Virus genome (UHGV): UHGV-1406243
Direction: 5' to 3' (one strand)
Length of the DNA: 11,436 nucleotides
DNA from: a virus
Below the pieces are notes generated by a model. That model was not told where the DNA came from and did no database searches. It saw only the letters and a list, made by a program, of their open reading frames with translations. The position numbers and the translations under genes are program-made. How positions within the stretch are numbered: the stretch's first letter is position 1; each line of letters opens with the position of its first letter. Positions 1,400-6,933 of the stretch are shown here, piece by piece.

Positions 1400-1456
1400 A
1401 TTTAAAAGATTTTATTCTTACTGTTTCATTTTCTGTAAATCATATATCCTCAGTAT

Positions 1457-1486
1457 TTGACATTCATCACTCTAGCGGGAACAATA
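1457..1486 (+). promoter_or_regulatory. Putative sigma70 promoter for alpA (perfect -35 TTGACA at 1457..1462, weak -10 near 1480..1486)
   Basis: Consensus TTGACA hexamer is read directly; the downstream -10 is only approximate (AACAAT/ACAATA). The TTG at 1457 that opens the 89-aa ORF in the track is part of this hexamer. Confidence 0.35.
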
Positions 1487-1537
1487 CGACACAATAAGAC
1501 ACCTGATGACTCTTTAAGAAACGAAAGGGGGGCAATA

Positions 1538-1726
1538 GTGTTAAGCACTGATCGGTTTATACGTGAAAAAGAATGCGAAAAACTAACCGGCCTTAGCCGT
1601 ACGTGTCGCTACCGCCTGGAAAAGGCCGGACAATTCCCATCACGTCGTAAACTTGGCGGTCGTTCCGTTGGCTGGTCTTTATCCGAGGTTCTGGCCTGGA
1701 AGGATAGCTGCAAGGCAGTTCATTAA
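1538..1726 (+). CDS. alpA: AlpA-family excisionase / transcriptional regulator (prophage CP4-57 regulatory protein family)
   Basis: The sequence DRFIREKECEKLTGLSRTCRYRLEKAGQFPSRRKLGGRSVGWSLSEVLAWK fits the AlpA/Xis MerR-like winged-helix pattern (hxxEVxxxTGLSRSTIYRLxxxGxFPxPxKLGxRxVxWxxSEVxxW). Start chosen at GTG 1538, 6 nt after AAAGGGGGG, because the longer ORF start at 1457 lies inside the promoter. Confidence 0.8.
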   Translation: MLSTDRFIREKECEKLTGLSRTCRYRLEKAGQFPSRRKLGGRSVGWSLSEVLAWKDSCKAVH

Positions 1727-1872
1727 TCACGCTGGCGGCACGCAGCCGCCACACATCAATCATCTGAACACAGAGCTATAACCATGAAGATTGAATATAC
1801 GCCAGAACGTGGGCGGGGATTCGTTCGCCCTGGTGAAACTGAAAAACAACAAAATTGGGGTTTTTCAGGTAT

Positions 1873-1901
1873 AAAAAAAGCGGCCCCGAAATGGAGCCGC
1901 C
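1873..1901 (-). terminator. Rho-independent terminator (bidirectional-looking hairpin GCGGCCCC-gaaat-GGAGCCGC flanked by an A-run and a weak T-run)
   Basis: On the minus strand the stem is followed by TTTTTTT (complement of A 1873..1879). It would end leftward transcripts from the repressor-side promoter before they reach alpA and int. Confidence 0.5.
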
Positions 1902-1995
1902 TTTCTGAACAGATAACCCGCTGCGCCGTTTGTGTGTGTGATCCCAAACATAAGCACGGGGATGATAGCCGTTATCAGGCTGGTGGGCAATGCAA

Positions 1996-2184
1996 TCAGT
2001 CTGGTTCAGTTCGTTGCCATACCTGCAATGAGCGCTTTTCCCTGTACTCTTTAAGGAATTGCTCAAGGGCAAAAGCACATGGCGCGAATCTTTCTGATTC
2101 ATGCTCTATCTTTCTGCGCCGTCTTTTCCGTGCCGGTGATAATGTTTTGGTCAATTCTTTATCGGTCATTGTGTTGTCCTGCAT
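1996..2184 (-). CDS. Hypothetical small basic protein (62 aa), possibly co-transcribed with the RHH gene
   Basis: ORF on the same strand and immediately downstream of the RHH gene, upstream of the minus-strand terminator. No convincing Shine-Dalgarno; arginine-rich stretch RKRRRRK. Confidence 0.3.
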   Translation of the reverse strand: MQDNTMTDKELTKTLSPARKRRRRKIEHESERFAPCAFALEQFLKEYREKRSLQVWQRTEPD

Positions 2185-2226
2185 AGCAATGCGCCGTAAT
2201 ACCTTACACCACGGCGCTGATGGTGA

Positions 2227-2406
2227 TTACTCTGGTTCTTTGGCCTTGCGCCGCTGGCGATATTCAACTTCTCGTTTTAATGCCGCAGTAACAAATTGCC
2301 CCGTACTTTCGCCAGGCATTTTTACCGCCTCAACATTGTTCATAACTTCATGCGGAACCCTTGCCGCAACGGTTTGTGATTTTGCGTTTACCGCTTTTGT
2401 CGCCAT
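2227..2406 (-). CDS. Ribbon-helix-helix (Arc/CopG/MetJ-like) transcriptional repressor, 59 aa; absent from the ORF track (below its length cutoff)
   Basis: Hand translation of the minus strand gives MATKAVNAKSQTVAARVPHEVMNNVEAVKMPGESTGQFVTAALKREVEYRQRRKAKEPE. It has an N-terminal beta-strand (VAARVP), helix A, a G-x-S/T turn (PGESTGQ) and helix B. GAGGGG lies 8-9 nt upstream of the ATG. The gene is divergent from the plus-strand operon, with operator palindromes in between. Confidence 0.6.
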   Translation of the reverse strand: MATKAVNAKSQTVAARVPHEVMNNVEAVKMPGESTGQFVTAALKREVEYRQRRKAKEPE

Positions 2407-2456
2407 GTGGTGTACCCCTCATAAAAAACAAATGCAGTATGCAGGAAAAAAAATAA

Positions 2457-2508
2457 GTGTTCAACACTTGACGTGTTTAACACCTGGGTTTAAATTGGTG
2501 TTCAACAC
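2457..2508. promoter_or_regulatory. Divergent promoter/operator region: three copies of the near-palindrome GTGTT(C/T)AACAC (2457..2467, 2473..2483, 2498..2508), overlapping a TTGACG -35 (2468..2473) and TAAATT -10 (2491..2496) for the rightward operon
   Basis: Repeats are read directly. The arms GTGTT/AACAC are inverted repeats, typical of dimeric repressor operators. The position between the divergent RHH gene and the rightward operon fits a genetic switch. Confidence 0.55.
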
Positions 2509-2605
2509 CTTGTTGGCGCAAGGTGCAGAAACGACGAAACCCGGCAGTGCGCTAACACTAACCGGGCTTCTAACCACCAACGATAGCGAAAGTATCGAGG
2601 TAGCT

Positions 2606-2806
2606 ATGAGAAATCATACCACACACCCGCAAGGGCGGGACTCGCACAACCTGAATAAATACATCTGGCGTTTTATCGCCCTGAGCACGGCACAACCGCG
2701 CGTGATTACCATTGAGGCCACCAGCGAACAGGAAGCACGCCAGCAATCTCCGGCTGGCTGCGTGATGGTATTTGCTGCCCGTATTCGTCAGGGGGTAGGC
2801 TTATGA
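2606..2806 (+). CDS. Small protein (66 aa), tentatively Icd-like host cell division inhibitor family; first gene of the rightward operon
   Basis: ATG 2606 follows GAGG by 5 nt. Product: MRNHTTHPQGRDSHNLNKYIWRFIALSTAQPRVITIEATSEQEARQQSPAGCVMVFAARIRQGVGL. The family assignment is from memory of similar satellite and cryptic-prophage proteins and is uncertain. The stop overlaps the next start (ATGA). Confidence 0.6.
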   Translation: MRNHTTHPQGRDSHNLNKYIWRFIALSTAQPRVITIEATSEQEARQQSPAGCVMVFAARIRQGVGL

Positions 2807-3033
2807 GCCAGGAAATCACACTACAACAGGCAGCAGAACGCGCCCACCAAATCGAAGTTATTTGCGCACTGGCAGAGGATTACCCTGGCATGATGACCGA
2901 CAGCGAATCAGGGGCAATCATCGGCTTACTTAAACGCCTTAGCGGTGAGGTCTGCGTATTCCTGAGCGATGAACAGGAAAGAAGAACGCTTATTTCTAAC
3001 GAAAAAAAATGCGGAGGGGTACATGTGCAATAA
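2803..3033 (+). CDS. Hypothetical protein (76 aa)
   Basis: ATGA overlap with the upstream gene (translational coupling); same strand within a compact operon. Confidence 0.6.
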   Translation: MSQEITLQQAAERAHQIEVICALAEDYPGMMTDSESGAIIGLLKRLSGEVCVFLSDEQERRTLISNEKKCGGVHVQ

Positions 3034-3244
3034 AACCACACCGGACGCAGCCGCCGCCGCGCTCACTACGCTGATGCACGCGCTTATTGATATTTCTGTT
3101 ATTGCTGACAGGGCGCATAAACACGCAGCCAGAGAATCAGAATGCATCTTCCATTTAGCATTTGTGCAGCTAAAAGCCGATCAGGCACTGGATAAGGCCG
3201 GAAAAATTATCATGGCTGATGTGCAGGAGGTGCACCATGCATAA
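3023..3244 (+). CDS. Hypothetical protein (73 aa)
   Basis: ATG 3023 is preceded by GGAGGGG (3012..3018). In frame with the 91-aa ORF in the track, whose upstream extension lacks an RBS. Overlaps neighbours on both sides. Confidence 0.55.
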   Translation: MCNKTTPDAAAAALTTLMHALIDISVIADRAHKHAARESECIFHLAFVQLKADQALDKAGKIIMADVQEVHHA

Positions 3245-3602
3245 TCTGTCAATTTCTGACCTTAACAGCATTCAGTTTGATGAGAAATTTACCGGGCAGT
3301 TGCTGGTCAATGTGGAGAACGGGCGCATAGTGCGTAATTATCACCTGCCGGATGGTGCAATTGCCGGAAGCGTTGAAGCATTGCTGGAACTGGCGGAACG
3401 TGCGCGACTGATTAAGCCGTCAACGAGCCATCACGATGATGATCTGCATTTTACCGGATGTATGGTGAGTCACTACGAAAACGGCGTCGAGGTATCCTGT
3501 GAACGGCTGCGTGATGATTGCTGTTTCGGCACACTGCCGGAATTTATCGAGTTGCTGACCAGTTGCGGTTATCAGGTCATTCAGGGGGGTAAACATGCGT
3601 GA
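3237..3602 (+). CDS. Hypothetical protein (121 aa)
   Basis: ATG 3237 is preceded by AGGAGG (3225..3230). The 127-aa ORF start at 3219 lacks an RBS. Confidence 0.65.
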   Translation: MHNLSISDLNSIQFDEKFTGQLLVNVENGRIVRNYHLPDGAIAGSVEALLELAERARLIKPSTSHHDDDLHFTGCMVSHYENGVEVSCERLRDDCCFGTLPEFIELLTSCGYQVIQGGKHA

Positions 3603-3866: not shown

Positions 3867-4166
3867 ATGAAACTTAAATATTCTGGCTTAACTGCCAGTG
3901 GCAACACTCACCCTAAATTTACGCGCGGCGATATTTACCGCGACCAGTACGGCGGCACGGTAATGATTAAGGGCGTGGAAGAACGGCGCGTAACCTACCG
4001 CCGTGAAGGTTACGAATATGATTGCGTGATGCCTGTTTATCAGTTCCGGCGTGATTTTTCTCTGGTACAGACCGCGCCGCATAACGTGTCCACCAGCAAC
4101 GCCAGGGCACGGGCAAACATCCAGAAGCTGAAAACCATGATTAACGGATTCAGGGGTAAAAAATGA
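3867..4166 (+). CDS. Hypothetical protein (99 aa)
   Basis: ATG 3867 is preceded by GGAG. Its stop overlaps the primase start (ATGA at 4163..4166). Confidence 0.7.
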   Translation: MKLKYSGLTASGNTHPKFTRGDIYRDQYGGTVMIKGVEERRVTYRREGYEYDCVMPVYQFRRDFSLVQTAPHNVSTSNARARANIQKLKTMINGFRGKK

Positions 4167-5917
4167 AACTGGCACCGAACGTAAAACAGCAGTCACGCGG
4201 CATAAAACACAAAGAAACAGAAGTCATTATTTTTGCGGGTAGTGATGCCTGGTCACACGCAAAACAATGGCAGGAACATGACGCGCGTATGGCCGGAGAT
4301 AATGAGCCTCCTGTGTGGCTTGGGGAGCAGCAGTTATCCGAACTGGATAAGCTGCAAATTGTGCCGGAAGGCAGAAAATCCGTGCGCATATTCAGGGCCG
4401 GATATCTTGCGCCAGTAATGATAAAGGCGATTGGTCAGAAGCTGGCGGCGGCAGGCGTACAGGATGCAAATTTTTACCCTGATGGTATGCACGGTCAGAA
4501 GGTGGAGAACTGGCGCGAATATCTGGCCCGTGAGCGCCAGAATCTTTCTGATGGTCTGGTCATTGAGCTTCCGGTAAAGCAAAAGGCGCAACTTTCGCAG
4601 ATGGCGGACAGTGAGCGCGCGCAGCTGCTTGCCGATCGCTTTGATGGCGTTTGCGTACATCCTGAAAGTGAAATCGTTCACGTATGGCGCGGCGGGGTAT
4701 GGTGTCCGGTCAGCACAATGGAACTTAGCCGCGAAATGGTGGCGATCTATTCAGAGCACAGGGCCACTTTCAGCAAGCGCGTAATCAATAACGCCGTGGA
4801 AGCGTTAAAAGTTATTGCCGAACCAATGGGCGAGCCGTCCGGCGATTTGTTGCCGTTCGCCAATGGTGCGCTTGACCTGAAAACGGGGGAATTTTCCCCG
4901 CACACGCCGGAGAACTGGATCACCACGCACAACGGCATTGAGTACACGCCACCAGCACCAGGGGAGAACATCCGCGATAACGCGCCAAACTTTCATAAAT
5001 GGCTTGAGCACGCAGCCGGAAAAGACCCGCGCAAGATGATGCGTATATGTGCCGCGCTGTACATGATTATGGCGAACCGGTACGACTGGCAGATGTTTAT
5101 TGAGGCCACCGGAGACGGCGGGAGCGGTAAAAGTACATTCACACACATAGCCAGCCTTCTGGCAGGGAAACAGAACACGGTAAGCGCTGAAATGACATCG
5201 CTTGATGATGCTGGTGGACGTGCGCAGGTTGTCGGGAGTCGTCTTATCGTCCTGGCTGACCAGCCGAAATATACAGGCGAAGGAACGGGCATCAAGAAAA
5301 TCACGGGCGGTGACCCCGTGGAAATTAACCCGAAATACGAAAAGCGTTTCACGGCGGTAATCAGGGCGGTGGTGCTGGCGACCAACAATAACCCGATGAT
5401 ATTCACCGAACGGGCCGGAGGTGTGGCACGTCGTCGCGTGATTTTCCGTTTCGACAATATCGTCAGTGAGGCCGAAAAAGACAGGGAGCTACCGGAAAAG
5501 ATCGCGGCTGAAATCCCTGTCATTATCCGCCGATTGCTGGCGAACTTTACCGACCCTGAGAAGGCACGGGCTTTACTACTGGAACAGCGTGACGGTGATG
5601 AAGCTCTGGCAATAAAGCAACAGACGGATCCGGTTATTGAGTTTTGCCAGTTCCTGAATTTTCTGGAGGAAGCACGCGGCCTGATGATGGGCGGCGGTGG
5701 CGATTCAGTGAAGTACACGACCAGAAACAGCCTTTACCGCGTCTATCTGGCGTTTATGGCGTACGCAGGCAGGAGCAAACCGCTAAACGTAAATGACTTT
5801 GGCAAGGCTATGAAGCCAGCCGCGAAAGTTTACGGACATGAATATATTACGCGGAAAGTTAAGGGAGTAACGCAGACTAACGCAATAACAACAGACGAGT
5901 GCGACGCGTTTTTATAA
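4163..5917 (+). CDS. Replication initiator: P4 alpha-like primase/helicase (D5-type SF3 NTPase domain)
   Basis: 584-aa ORF. Walker A GDGGSGKST and Walker B-like RLIVLADQ are read directly in the C-terminal half. Gene size and the iteron array immediately downstream match satellite Pri-Rep / P4 alpha proteins. The N-terminal primase domain was not confirmed motif by motif. Confidence 0.85.
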   Translation: MKLAPNVKQQSRGIKHKETEVIIFAGSDAWSHAKQWQEHDARMAGDNEPPVWLGEQQLSELDKLQIVPEGRKSVRIFRAGYLAPVMIKAIGQKLAAAGVQDANFYPDGMHGQKVENWREYLARERQNLSDGLVIELPVKQKAQLSQMADSERAQLLADRFDGVCVHPESEIVHVWRGGVWCPVSTMELSREMVAIYSEHRATFSKRVINNAVEALKVIAEPMGEPSGDLLPFANGALDLKTGEFSPHTPENWITTHNGIEYTPPAPGENIRDNAPNFHKWLEHAAGKDPRKMMRICAALYMIMANRYDWQMFIEATGDGGSGKSTFTHIASLLAGKQNTVSAEMTSLDDAGGRAQVVGSRLIVLADQPKYTGEGTGIKKITGGDPVEINPKYEKRFTAVIRAVVLATNNNPMIFTERAGGVARRRVIFRFDNIVSEAEKDRELPEKIAAEIPVIIRRLLANFTDPEKARALLLEQRDGDEALAIKQQTDPVIEFCQFLNFLEEARGLMMGGGGDSVKYTTRNSLYRVYLAFMAYAGRSKPLNVNDFGKAMKPAAKVYGHEYITRKVKGVTQTNAITTDECDAFL

Positions 5918-5929
5918 TTTTTTGTAATT

Positions 5930-6160
5930 GCTGTCTACCCTGTCTACCTGAGTAAAGAAAAATACATTTAATTCAGTGCATTAAGTTAGGTAGATAGCCT
6001 TTTTTTACTGTCTACCCACTATCTACCCTCTCTACCTGATTTTACCTGAATCAGACAGGGAGGTAGACACGGGGTAGATAGTGGATAAAAGCACTCTACC
6101 CCGCTGAAAGCCGCGCCATTACTGGTATGAGGGCCACTAAGGTAGATAAGGTAGACAAGG
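5930..6160. other. Putative origin of replication: iteron array of YCTACC / GGTAGAY motifs with dyad organisation; duplicated at 6379..6609
   Basis: At least 11 copies of the core (T/C)CTACC. Direct copies lie at 5933..6048 (TGTCTACCCTGTCTACCTG, TGTCTACCC, ATCTACCC, TCTACCTG) and inverted copies at 6061..6160 (GGTAGACAC, GGTAGATAG, GGTAGATAAGGTAGACAAGG), centred near 6055. It sits directly downstream of the primase gene. Confidence 0.55.
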
Positions 6161-6205
6161 GGAGGCACAACTCAAAACTTTTTAAACGAGGGGGTAAAAA
6201 TAAAT

Positions 6206-6262
6206 ATGCACACTTCAGGGAAATTTAATAAATCACTCAAAATGACTTTGGCAAGGCTATGA
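6206..6262 (+). pseudogene. Truncated duplicate of the start of the 92-aa gene (18 codons, then stop), created by the tandem duplication
   Basis: Same RBS and first 12 codons (MHTSGKFNKSLK) as the gene at 6655; the reading frame then runs into the duplicated primase 3' fragment and stops. Confidence 0.4.
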
Positions 6263-6654
6263 AGCCAGCCGCGAAAGTTTACGGACATGAATATATTACG
6301 CGGAAAGTTAAGGGAGTAACGCAGACTAACGCAATAACAACAGACGAGTGCGACGCGTTTTTATAATTTTTTGTAATTGCTGTCTACCCTGTCTACCTGA
6401 GTAAAGAAAAATACATTTAATTCAGTGCATTAAGTTAGGTAGATAGCCTTTTTTTACTGTCTACCCACTATCTACCCTCTCTACCTGATTTTACCTGAAT
6501 CAGACAGGGAGGTAGACACGGGGTAGATAGTGGATAAAAGCACTCTACCCCGCTGAAAGCCGCGCCATTACTGGTATGAGGGCCACTAAGGTAGATAAGG
6601 TAGACAAGGGGAGGCACAACTCAAAACTTTTTAAACGAGGGGGTAAAAATAAAT

Positions 6655-6933
6655 ATGCACACTTCAGGGAAATTTAATAAATCACTCAAAAAACGCAGAG
6701 ACAGAACAGAACCGAAATATCGCGCGTTAGACATGACAGAGCACGCTTTAAAGGTGGCAATCAGAACGATAGACCGCCACGCGGGGGAAGGATACGCGAA
6801 AGCACATCCCGAACTGATAAGCGCATTCATGACCACGACGGCGGCAAATTTTGCCACGCTGACAGAGCGGGAGATTGCCGAAGCGGAACAGGTAACAACC
6901 ATCAACGTTAAAACCGGAGAGGTGGAATCATGA
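6655..6933 (+). CDS. Hypothetical protein (92 aa)
   Basis: Strong RBS GAGGGGGT upstream; stop overlaps the ssb start (ATGA). Confidence 0.65.
   Translation: MHTSGKFNKSLKKRRDRTEPKYRALDMTEHALKVAIRTIDRHAGEGYAKAHPELISAFMTTTAANFATLTEREIAEAEQVTTINVKTGEVES

Follow-up and report, generated by a model that had tools for sequence, protein, structure and literature searches.

A candidate immunity and induction switch combining a ribbon-helix-helix-type protein, a SymR-family antisense RNA and an eta-like open reading frame in an EcCICFT073-type phage-inducible chromosomal island

The UHGV virus genome UHGV-1406243, a stretch of 11,436 nucleotides analysed here at its full length (the window), is by gene content and gene order an EcCICFT073-type phage-inducible chromosomal island (PICI). 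The region of interest extends from the activator gene alpA to the replication genes. A gene for a 59-aa protein of the YlcI/YnfO family (MATKAVNAKSQTVAARVPHEVMNNVEAVKMPGESTGQFVTAALKREVEYRQRRKAKEPE; the gene is called rhh below) was located on the minus strand at 2227-2406, with a second small leftward gene beside it at 1996-2169. Between rhh and a rightward icd-like gene (2606-2806, plus strand) lay three copies of an 11-bp operator sequence, an internal rightward promoter (PR) and the template of a predicted antisense RNA, and an open reading frame (ORF) of 340 aa on the plus strand (1784-2806, ORF340) ran antisense to both small genes, through the operators and in frame into the icd-like gene. 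We suggest, with a probability of about 0.6, that this region forms an immunity and induction switch arranged on the scaffold of the P4 eta and kil genes with different effectors, in which a ribbon-helix-helix (RHH) repressor, a SymR-family RNA and the long ORF each take part.

The initial annotation had proposed rhh as an unlisted gene with a good ribosome-binding site (RBS), and it was right on both points. The gene is real, and it was unlisted merely through the length cutoff of the first stage; in near-identical genomes, PGAP places a 'YlcI/YnfO family protein' (WP_000201461.1) at identical coordinates. A Shine-Dalgarno (SD) sequence, GAGGGG, was read at 2420-2415, 8 nt 5' of the ATG. Against NCBIfam, the protein matched NF041551 (YlcI_YnfO_N) with 59.7 bits at a cutoff of 30 (E 2e-16), and the match spanned residues 9-50 and the entire 42-position model, which places the protein in the YlcI/YnfO family. 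The family is small, with 82 representatives at 50% clustering, and homologues of the 59-aa protein were found across the Enterobacterales, in Edwardsiella, Pectobacterium, Kosakonia, Yokenella, Serratia, Xenorhabdus, Proteus, Klebsiella and others.

An RHH signature had also been read in the protein, and the pattern of strand, helix, G-E-S turn and helix was indeed present, with modest statistical support for the fold. The strand would occupy approximately residues 10-17, followed by P18, a helix at 19-28, the turn at G32-E-S34 and a second helix at 35-56. When the homologues were aligned, residues N7, K9, S10, R16, H19, G32-E33-S34, Q37, F38, E46 and R50 were invariant. Within the N-terminal stretch, positions 13, 15 and 17 were hydrophobic or small and positions 12 and 14 were variable, and this alternation over residues 12-17 is as expected of a DNA-reading beta-strand. 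A distant member of the family, P0151, scored exactly at the gathering threshold of Pfam RHH_1. Several results spoke against the fold. A Pfam search with the 59-aa protein gave no RHH match and just a spurious one to Med10, a profile search of the PDB sequences gave no match at E <=10, and Foldseek gave none against the PDB. Alignment to Arc and CopG with hhalign found the correct register at a probability below 5%, which is not significant, and the AF2 monomer had short helices at its N-terminus, not a strand. On balance, the sequence pattern makes it likely, rather than proven, that the 59-aa protein is an RHH protein. The gene has thus far been named by PGAP, and in the literature on YlcI, YnfO, DUF3950 and PICI repressors we found no functional study of the protein and no study describing the combination of elements reported here.

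Three exact copies of GTGTT(C/T)AACAC were located between rhh and the rightward operon, at the coordinates first given for them: O1 (GTGTTCAACAC, 2457-2467), O2 (GTGTTTAACAC, 2473-2483) and O3 (GTGTTCAACAC, 2498-2508), with spacings of 16 and 25 bp between units. A search for GTGTTYAACAC on both strands with at most one mismatch returned 7 matches, three of them exact, compared to 0.47 expected, and none of 200 shuffles reached 7. The promoter scan predicted PR as a sigma-70-like element on the plus strand, with TTGACG (2468-2473), a 17-nt spacer and TAAATT (2491-2496). As the initial annotation had indicated, the repeats are placed at the TTGACG hexamer: O1 abuts it and O2 begins on its last base. 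O2 occupies the PR spacer, and O3 lies just 3' of the PR -10, over the expected transcription start. On the minus strand, a putative leftward promoter (PL) was read by eye, with a -35 TTGAAC (2464-2459), a spacer of 17 nt and a -10 CATACT (2441-2436); its -35 is overlapped by O1. Relatives carry TATACT at the position of the PL -10 and keep TTGAC(G/A) as the PR -35.

Two further sequences resembled regulatory elements. The start codon of alpA lies in an operator-like sequence (1538-1548, GTGTTAAGCAC) with one mismatch to the degenerate pattern and two to the exact operator. It was rejected as an extra operator, since in the relatives each locus's own operator was confined to the intergenic DNA, and the likeness is probably due to chance. 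At the very start of the predicted PR transcript there is an inverted repeat, CACCTTG...CAAGGTG (2501-2530). A hairpin of other sequence stands at this place in most lineages, and it could be a 5' stabilising hairpin.

We compared the region across 11 divergent E. coli loci, CFT073 and 31 loci from other genera, giving about 40 loci in more than 10 genera. The layout was the same in every locus, with the rhh gene, approximately 200 bp of intergenic DNA and the rightward icd-like gene, and the intergenic DNA always contained two to four copies of an 11-bp GTG-N5-CAC unit. The positions of these sites were fixed relative to the rhh ATG, at +22 (+51 in the lineage of the window), +67, and +89 to +93. 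The +67 site abuts TTGAC[G/A] at the same position in all lineages, and the site at +89 to +93 is located 3' of the -10. The central bases of the sites varied by lineage and tracked the sequence of the beta-strand. The strand KSQT[VIL]AARV was found together with the site GTGTTCAACAC in E. coli, Edwardsiella, Kosakonia and Pectobacterium, and KS[KR]KLEARV with GTGGCTGACAC in E. coli, ten Xenorhabdus species and Pectobacterium. KSQALKARV or KSQSLKSRV accompanied GTGG[GA]CCACAC in a group that includes CFT073, and KSQKMSARV accompanied TGGGTGCCAGT in Xenorhabdus and Proteus. The remaining pairs were KSQK[LIV]Q[AT]RA with GTGGA[GA]TCCAC, KSKRFDVRV with GTGTCCGACAC, and KSQSVTARI with GTGTAAGACAC, the third copy of which is inverted. 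When 22 loci of 5-13 kb were each scanned for their own site, with at most one mismatch allowed, all copies fell in the intergenic region.

This association was quantified with a Mantel test. The distances between beta-strands correlated with those between sites (r 0.46, p 0.003), and the partial correlation remained at 0.42 when the rest of the protein was controlled for, whereas the partial correlation of the rest of the protein with the site was -0.14. Two loci were mis-extracted in this test, so that the figures are conservative. The sites therefore follow the strand residues, are confined to the regulated intergenic region and are fixed with respect to the -35 and -10, as a repressor/operator specificity would have it. 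Together these comparisons of sequence are strong indirect evidence that the RHH protein uses its N-terminal strand to bind the GTG-N5-CAC sites. RHH proteins are dimers in which an antiparallel sheet of two strands enters the major groove at repeated sites, and the co-variation of strand residues with sites would be indirect support for such a mode here. The specificity appears to be set by residues 12 and 14, and the system thus appears to exist in many 'immunity types'. The initial annotation had described a divergent switch in which a master repressor keeps the island silent until a helper signal arrives. Its first half was borne out, in that co-variation over about 40 loci points to a sequence-specific DNA-binding protein with an operator set at a divergent promoter region. 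The second half was not supported, since over-expression of AlpA alone induces EcCICFT073 (PMC6092414). Because induction of EcCICFT073 works through AlpA, and AlpA alone suffices, the repressor probably controls just the internal promoter.

The sequences on either side of the variable segment of rhh behaved differently from that segment. The C-terminal tail RRQRRKAKE(P/Q)E (2227-2260; loci L002-L011) was near-invariant in E. coli lineages despite widely differing strands and helices, even where a 40-aa insertion is present. The right flank, consisting of the leader and the first 55 nt of the icd-like gene, was likewise near-invariant. With such conserved flanks around the variable strand and helices, the specificity cassette looks like a module that is swapped by recombination. 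The namesake of the family, ylcI in the DLP12 prophage of K-12 (L047 4752-5880), is divergent from nohD, which encodes a terminase small subunit, at a distance of about 390 bp. By this arrangement the YlcI/YnfO family may also regulate packaging or late regions in lambdoid prophages.

An RNA layer was missed in the first reading. On the minus strand at 2530-2605, a SymR-family cis-antisense RNA of about 76 nt was predicted, complementary to the SD and start region of the icd-like gene. In the predicted fold, an unpaired stretch (UUGGUGGUUAGA) separates a hairpin at the 5' end (2597-2581) from a terminator hairpin (2569-2537), behind which the tail is rich in U. An extended -10 promoter for it, TGgTATGAT (2621-2613, minus strand), is located inside icd-like codons 3-6. 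The TAnnnT pattern was kept in 33 of 33 aligned relatives, reads TATAAT in L002 and L005, and aligns with the symR -10; from this conserved position the 5' end of the RNA is expected at about 2605, opposite the icd-like start codon.

The 33 distinct leaders aligned well and supported a minus-strand structure with a conserved single strand (UUGUGGUUAGA), a GC-rich hairpin and a U-rich tail. In this alignment 95.9% of cells were paired and 15 of the 18 pairs changed on both sides, and the covariation was 0.40, compared to at most 0.09 in slid-partner controls. The RNAalifold energy was -29.2 kcal/mol on the minus strand, compared to -5.2 on the plus strand. G-U cells numbered 47 on the minus strand and 2 on the plus strand, and on the basis of this asymmetry the possibility that the leader hairpins act in the plus-strand mRNA was rejected. 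When the window was searched with Rfam, SymR (RF01809) matched the minus strand over its full length at 2605-2533, with 33.3 bits (E 0.0035). In the reverse direction, a covariance model made from island RNAs only (R1) matched the annotated K-12 symR exactly (L045 4821-4924), with 31.2 bits and E 2e-4 in 83 kb. The island RNA thus has the architecture and the position of SymR and is reciprocally similar to it. These comparisons give good support to a SymR-family cis-antisense RNA that overlies the icd-like SD and AUG, and they suggest that SymR has relatives on phage satellites. By analogy with SymR, with P1 c4/icd and with P4 kil, the RNA would block translation of PR transcripts, with polarity or decay to follow. 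A P4-type CI/C4 or IsrK RNA was also considered for the region and was rejected, as the window gave no Rfam match to C4, isrK or c4-a1b1 at E <=1.

The icd-like gene itself encodes 66 aa, is homologous to P4 Kil, has an SD GAGG at 2597-2600, and ends in a stop codon that overlaps the ATG of the next gene (2803). NF033153 (Icd-like) matched this short form with 69.9 bits and residues 293-336 of ORF340 with 66.3 bits. Family similarity of ORF340 was limited to its last 48 residues, and its translation was otherwise not conserved. The reading frame, however, was kept open. The icd frame extended 612-1302 nt upstream in 11 of 11 E. coli loci, where it reached or entered the end of the plus-strand gene before it, and in the window it is closed upstream by the stop codon of alpA itself. 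Across genera, one plus frame over the rhh ATG was typically open for 600-1250 nt, whereas the other two frames were open for at most 240 nt. The 190-nt intergenic operator region was open in this frame in 30 of 36 informative loci, and the other frames had 2-12 stops; dinucleotide shuffles left it open in approximately 1-5% of cases per locus. In most lineages an ATG with a good SD was found at -7 to +20 from the stop of the upstream gene, for example TGGAGGnnnnnnATG overlapping the antA or BRO-N stop, or AAAGGGGnG 11 nt after alpA. We therefore consider that the long plus-strand ORF is probably a translated bypass ORF like P4 eta. The conserved open frame, the SD-coupled starts and the Icd-like domain of P4 Eta/Kil together contradict the earlier opinion that ORF340 is almost certainly not a gene.

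Three observations concern the annotation and history of the long ORF. It is antiparallel to rhh with coinciding third codon positions, so that synonymous change is possible in both, and with these shared wobble positions codon periodicity cannot separate rhh from ORF340. PGAP treats ORF340 (L001 9385-10407) as two features: 1784-2231 is labelled 'Icd-like pseudogene, missing C-terminus', and the rest is called as a 133-aa 'Icd-like protein' whose ATG (2405) stands back to back with the start codon of rhh. Both calls look like artefacts of the nested and overlapping arrangement. In CFT073 the long ORF (L044 6767-7243) still contains a remnant resembling BRO-N (…ISESGFYKLIKTKSAP…), which the window has lost by deletion. 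This remnant agrees with the published placing of eta among 'Bro network' genes (PMC10111431).

The second gene of the leftward operon (1996-2169, minus strand) encodes 57 aa from ATG 2169, or 62 aa from ATG 2184, has the motif ERFAPCAFALEQFLKEY, and is annotated by PGAP as 'hypothetical protein' in relatives. The protein has a basic N-terminus and was conserved in the E. coli island lineages only; the gene is absent from Xenorhabdus, Proteus, Serratia and other genera that keep the RHH gene, the operators and the icd-like gene. Searches of Pfam and NCBIfam gave no family match and no toxin family. A 108-aa minus-strand ORF (1776-2102) and other small ORFs in 1727-2226 were rejected as shadows, as just the 57-aa ORF is conserved as a protein.

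Sequence and comparison established the rhh gene, the sites and their co-variation with the protein, as well as the conservation of the open frame, the P4 eta/kil homology and a structured antisense RNA. In the mechanism that we infer, the RHH protein would bind the three GTG-N5-CAC sites, and with O2 in the PR spacer and O3 on the +1, RNA polymerase would be blocked at PR when these are occupied. O1 on the PL -35, or in most relatives a site just 3' of the PL -10, would provide autoregulation either way. The placement of the sites thus implies repression of the rightward promoter together with autoregulation. PR transcripts that leak through would be left untranslated by the antisense RNA, which would be made from the promoter inside the first icd-like codons and would pair with the SD and AUG, and by analogy with P4 kil/timm and P1 icd/ant these transcripts would be terminated or degraded. 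For induction, the helper phage would turn on alpA, and AlpA would activate its own promoter. The alpA-promoter transcript, the presumed source of read-through, would run rightward, and the long ORF (1784-2806) would be translated from a start near the upstream gene. Ribosomes would then pass antisense over the repressor genes, the operators and the leader, and proceed in frame into the icd-like gene. Such translation would prevent Rho-dependent termination, the involvement of Rho being taken from P4, and would bypass the blocked RBS, and the convergent read-through would probably interfere with repressor expression. A reporter downstream of alpA in EcCICFT073 depends on AlpA, and AlpA alone induces excision and replication (PMC6092414). 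The AlpA-dependent reporter fits read-through from the alpA promoter.

A number of results weigh against parts of this switch. PL matches 8 of 12 consensus positions, which is below the threshold of the promoter scan, and was not listed by it. The SymR match of 33.3 bits lies below the Rfam gathering score of 61. The part of ORF340 that is antisense to rhh stays open in approximately 40-50% of synonymous recodings; as this part is often open by chance, the argument for the long frame draws its strength from the intergenic part and from how many lineages there are, and the lineages counted were not fully independent. Six relatives have stops in the long frame, and in L012 one stop is located 7 codons 5' of the icd ATG. 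The SD at the long-ORF ATG was weak in the window, where the ATG lies 58 nt after the upstream stop, and in CFT073, where it lies 53 nt after it.

The explanation closest to the initial annotation is a simple divergent switch, with the RHH protein as the single master repressor lifted by a helper signal and ORF340 without meaning. It accounts for the gene, its RBS, the operators and the promoter, which are all as first described, for the co-variation of operator and protein, and for a long-ORF translation that is of low complexity and unconserved outside the Icd-like C-terminus. However, it leaves unaccounted for a frame free of stops in the AT-rich and mutually unrelated operator regions of 30 of 36 loci, when chance would keep each open with a probability of about 0.01-0.05, as well as the SD-coupled starts of the long ORF, its P4 eta/kil homology and the extra RNA layer. 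Moreover, a helper-sensitive master repressor is not required if AlpA alone induces EcCICFT073. We consider this simpler switch unlikely.

Less probable is the possibility that the leftward two-gene operon is a self-contained autoregulated module, perhaps a toxin-antitoxin pair with an RHH antitoxin, whose effect on the rightward genes is incidental. The two best-conserved sites are in the PR spacer and on the PR +1, not on PL, and the second gene is missing in several genera that retain the RHH gene, the operators and the icd-like gene. A type II toxin-antitoxin module is not indicated, as the 57-aa partner resembles no toxin family and most other genera lack it, and the confinement of its gene to E. 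coli lineages argues against a toxin-antitoxin reading. It is very improbable that the minus-strand ORF is a shadow of the plus-strand ORF and that the repeats are bound by AlpA, a Bro-N/Ant protein or a host factor: the uninformative codon periodicity at shared wobble positions and a protein family without known function would allow it, but the ORF has its own RBS and a strong match to a curated family model, its invariant residues form the RHH pattern over at least 10 genera, the site sequence changes with the beta-strand residues rather than with other parts of the protein, and where loci share the same operators their AlpA and Bro-type genes differ independently of the site type.

The switch on the P4 eta/kil scaffold is therefore preferred. 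A more far-reaching form of it is possible, although we hold it with considerable doubt: EcCICFT073-type PICIs would use a previously undescribed three-layer switch, with RHH repressors of interchangeable immunity types overprinted antisense in a bypass ORF, a SymR-family RNA over the Kil/Icd-like first gene, and translated read-through driven by AlpA. This read-through would pass both the operators and the RNA block and, by convergent transcription, shut off the repressor as well, which would make induction one-way. If this form were true, SymR/SymE would be a domesticated relative of a satellite immunity RNA.

The remainder of the window agrees with its classification as a PICI. It carries int (185-1399), alpA (1538-1726, plus strand; Pfam Phage_AlpA, 60 bits) behind a predicted promoter TTGACA-17-AACAAT (1457-1485, plus strand, promoter scan), a primase-type replication module with a 584-aa primase (4163-5917), and ori iterons, in a small element with conserved order; capsid-like and decoration-like genes are also present. 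The gene order int, alpA, small minus-strand gene, YlcI/YnfO gene, Icd-like gene, DUF4222 gene and primase is common to the window and the CFT073 island. The latter has the matching organisation, adjoins phoQ and is EcCICFT073, the prototype Gram-negative phage-inducible chromosomal island (PMC6092414). Positions 1400-3300 of the window were 99.9% identical to an island inserted in tqsA of E. coli O18:H1, and relatives of 1727-2620 were present in 1813 of 5426 complete E. coli genomes, at up to 6 places per genome.

Directly 3' of the alpA stop and before the long-ORF start, there is a GC-rich hairpin, TGGCGGC-acgca-GCCGCCA (1733-1751), which has no T-run and is thus not a typical intrinsic terminator. 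Further right, at 5791-6691, a 449-bp unit is perfectly duplicated head to tail (copy 1 at 5791-6242, copy 2 at 6240-6691, 452 nt identical). The unit contains the iteron field, with five GTCTACC/GGTAGAC per copy, together with the primase 3' end, so that the replication origin of the island is duplicated; the related islands of CP028320 and CFT073 have merely about 289 nt from primase to the next gene. Matches to microRNA families at about 6000-6530 in the Rfam scan were rejected, being palindromic ori iterons.

The 2018 description of these islands left the question of a repressor open (PMC6092414). The module analysed here is present in the prototype EcCICFT073 and in about one third of complete E. 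coli genomes, and it provides a candidate set of a specific repressor, operators, an antisense RNA and a bypass ORF that would explain induction by AlpA alone. Each component belongs to a known kind, namely an RHH repressor/operator pair, P4-like nested genes and a SymR-type RNA. The many specificity classes suggest immunity types, which could let several islands share one cell (up to six matches were counted per genome), and the switch is a source of orthogonal repressor/operator pairs. For annotation, the nested arrangement matters because PGAP turns the long ORF into a 'pseudogene' and an over-long 'Icd-like protein'. SymR, so far an isolated chromosomal RNA, becomes linked to the immunity of mobile elements.

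No significant sequence similarity was found between the island protein and Arc, Mnt (P22 immI) or CopG/omega-type repressors. When the RHH and Icd-like proteins were searched by tblastn against 50,697 phage records, one induced 16.5-kb element was the only match, and neither P4 nor P1 was matched. The Stl/Rpr repressors of SaPIs are, like the island repressor, encoded by the island in a divergent regulatory region between the int and replication sides (PMC6092414). The Stl proteins differ in being larger helix-turn-helix (HTH) repressors that are lifted by direct binding of helper proteins, whereas the known inducer route of the island is the activator AlpA, and there is no indication that a helper protein binds the island RHH protein.

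The closest correspondence is with P4. In P4, eta is coupled to vis, an alpA homologue, and contains an internal constitutive promoter and the short in-frame Kil (PMC10111431, citing Forti 1999). In P4, eta is translated solely on transcripts of the upstream late promoter (PLL); translation protects these transcripts from termination, so that they escape immunity (PMC10111431). P4 and the island share the order of alpA/vis, a long ORF coupled to it, an internal promoter, a short in-frame form and the replication genes, and PR of the window is the positional analogue of P4 PLE. The P4 ORF (8168-8812, 214 aa) shares 49 nt with the end of vis, and its last 65 residues align with the 66-aa protein of the window. 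The Icd-like domain is common to the short form and to the C-terminus of the long form in both elements, being found in the P4 ORF at residues 161-208 with 73.1 bits (NF033153). The window thus shows the nested eta/kil arrangement, with an Icd-like C-terminus, a long ORF that starts at the alpA side and a predicted PR inside it. In P4, nonsense mutations in eta cause premature termination. The immunity systems themselves differ. P4 immunity is exerted by the sense-encoded, trans-acting CI RNA (Rfam C4) on seqA and seqC, and the Rfam matches inside P4 eta were C4 (74.9 bits), isrK (60.8 bits) and c4-a1b1 (44.1 bits), whereas neither the RNA nor its targets were found in the window (Rfam, E <=1). 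Conversely, our searches of P4 found no RHH homologue and no SymR-like RNA, and the island has both. The island, unlike P4, also has a protein repressor gene antisense inside the long ORF, with operators flanking the internal promoter. With the P4 RNA elements absent and the RHH protein present, the island seems to keep the P4 scaffold with RNA immunity replaced by a protein repressor.

The RNA layer resembles two further systems. At P1 immI, the RBS of a first gene of the Icd family is blocked by an antisense-type RNA, and the downstream genes are not expressed. P1 C4 is a trans-acting RNA released by processing of the same transcript, whereas the island RNA is a predicted cis-antisense RNA from the opposite strand without an Rfam C4 match. 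K-12 SymR and the island RNA are both antisense RNAs of about 77 nt with a 5' end opposite the start codon of the target and a 5' hairpin, and they share the single strand UUGUG(A/G)UUAG, the terminator loop GUGUU(G/A)GCGCAC and reciprocal covariance-model matches. The two differ in their targets: SymR acts on the SOS-induced SymE, whereas the predicted target of the island RNA is an Icd-like, Kil-like gene at the head of a satellite replication operon.

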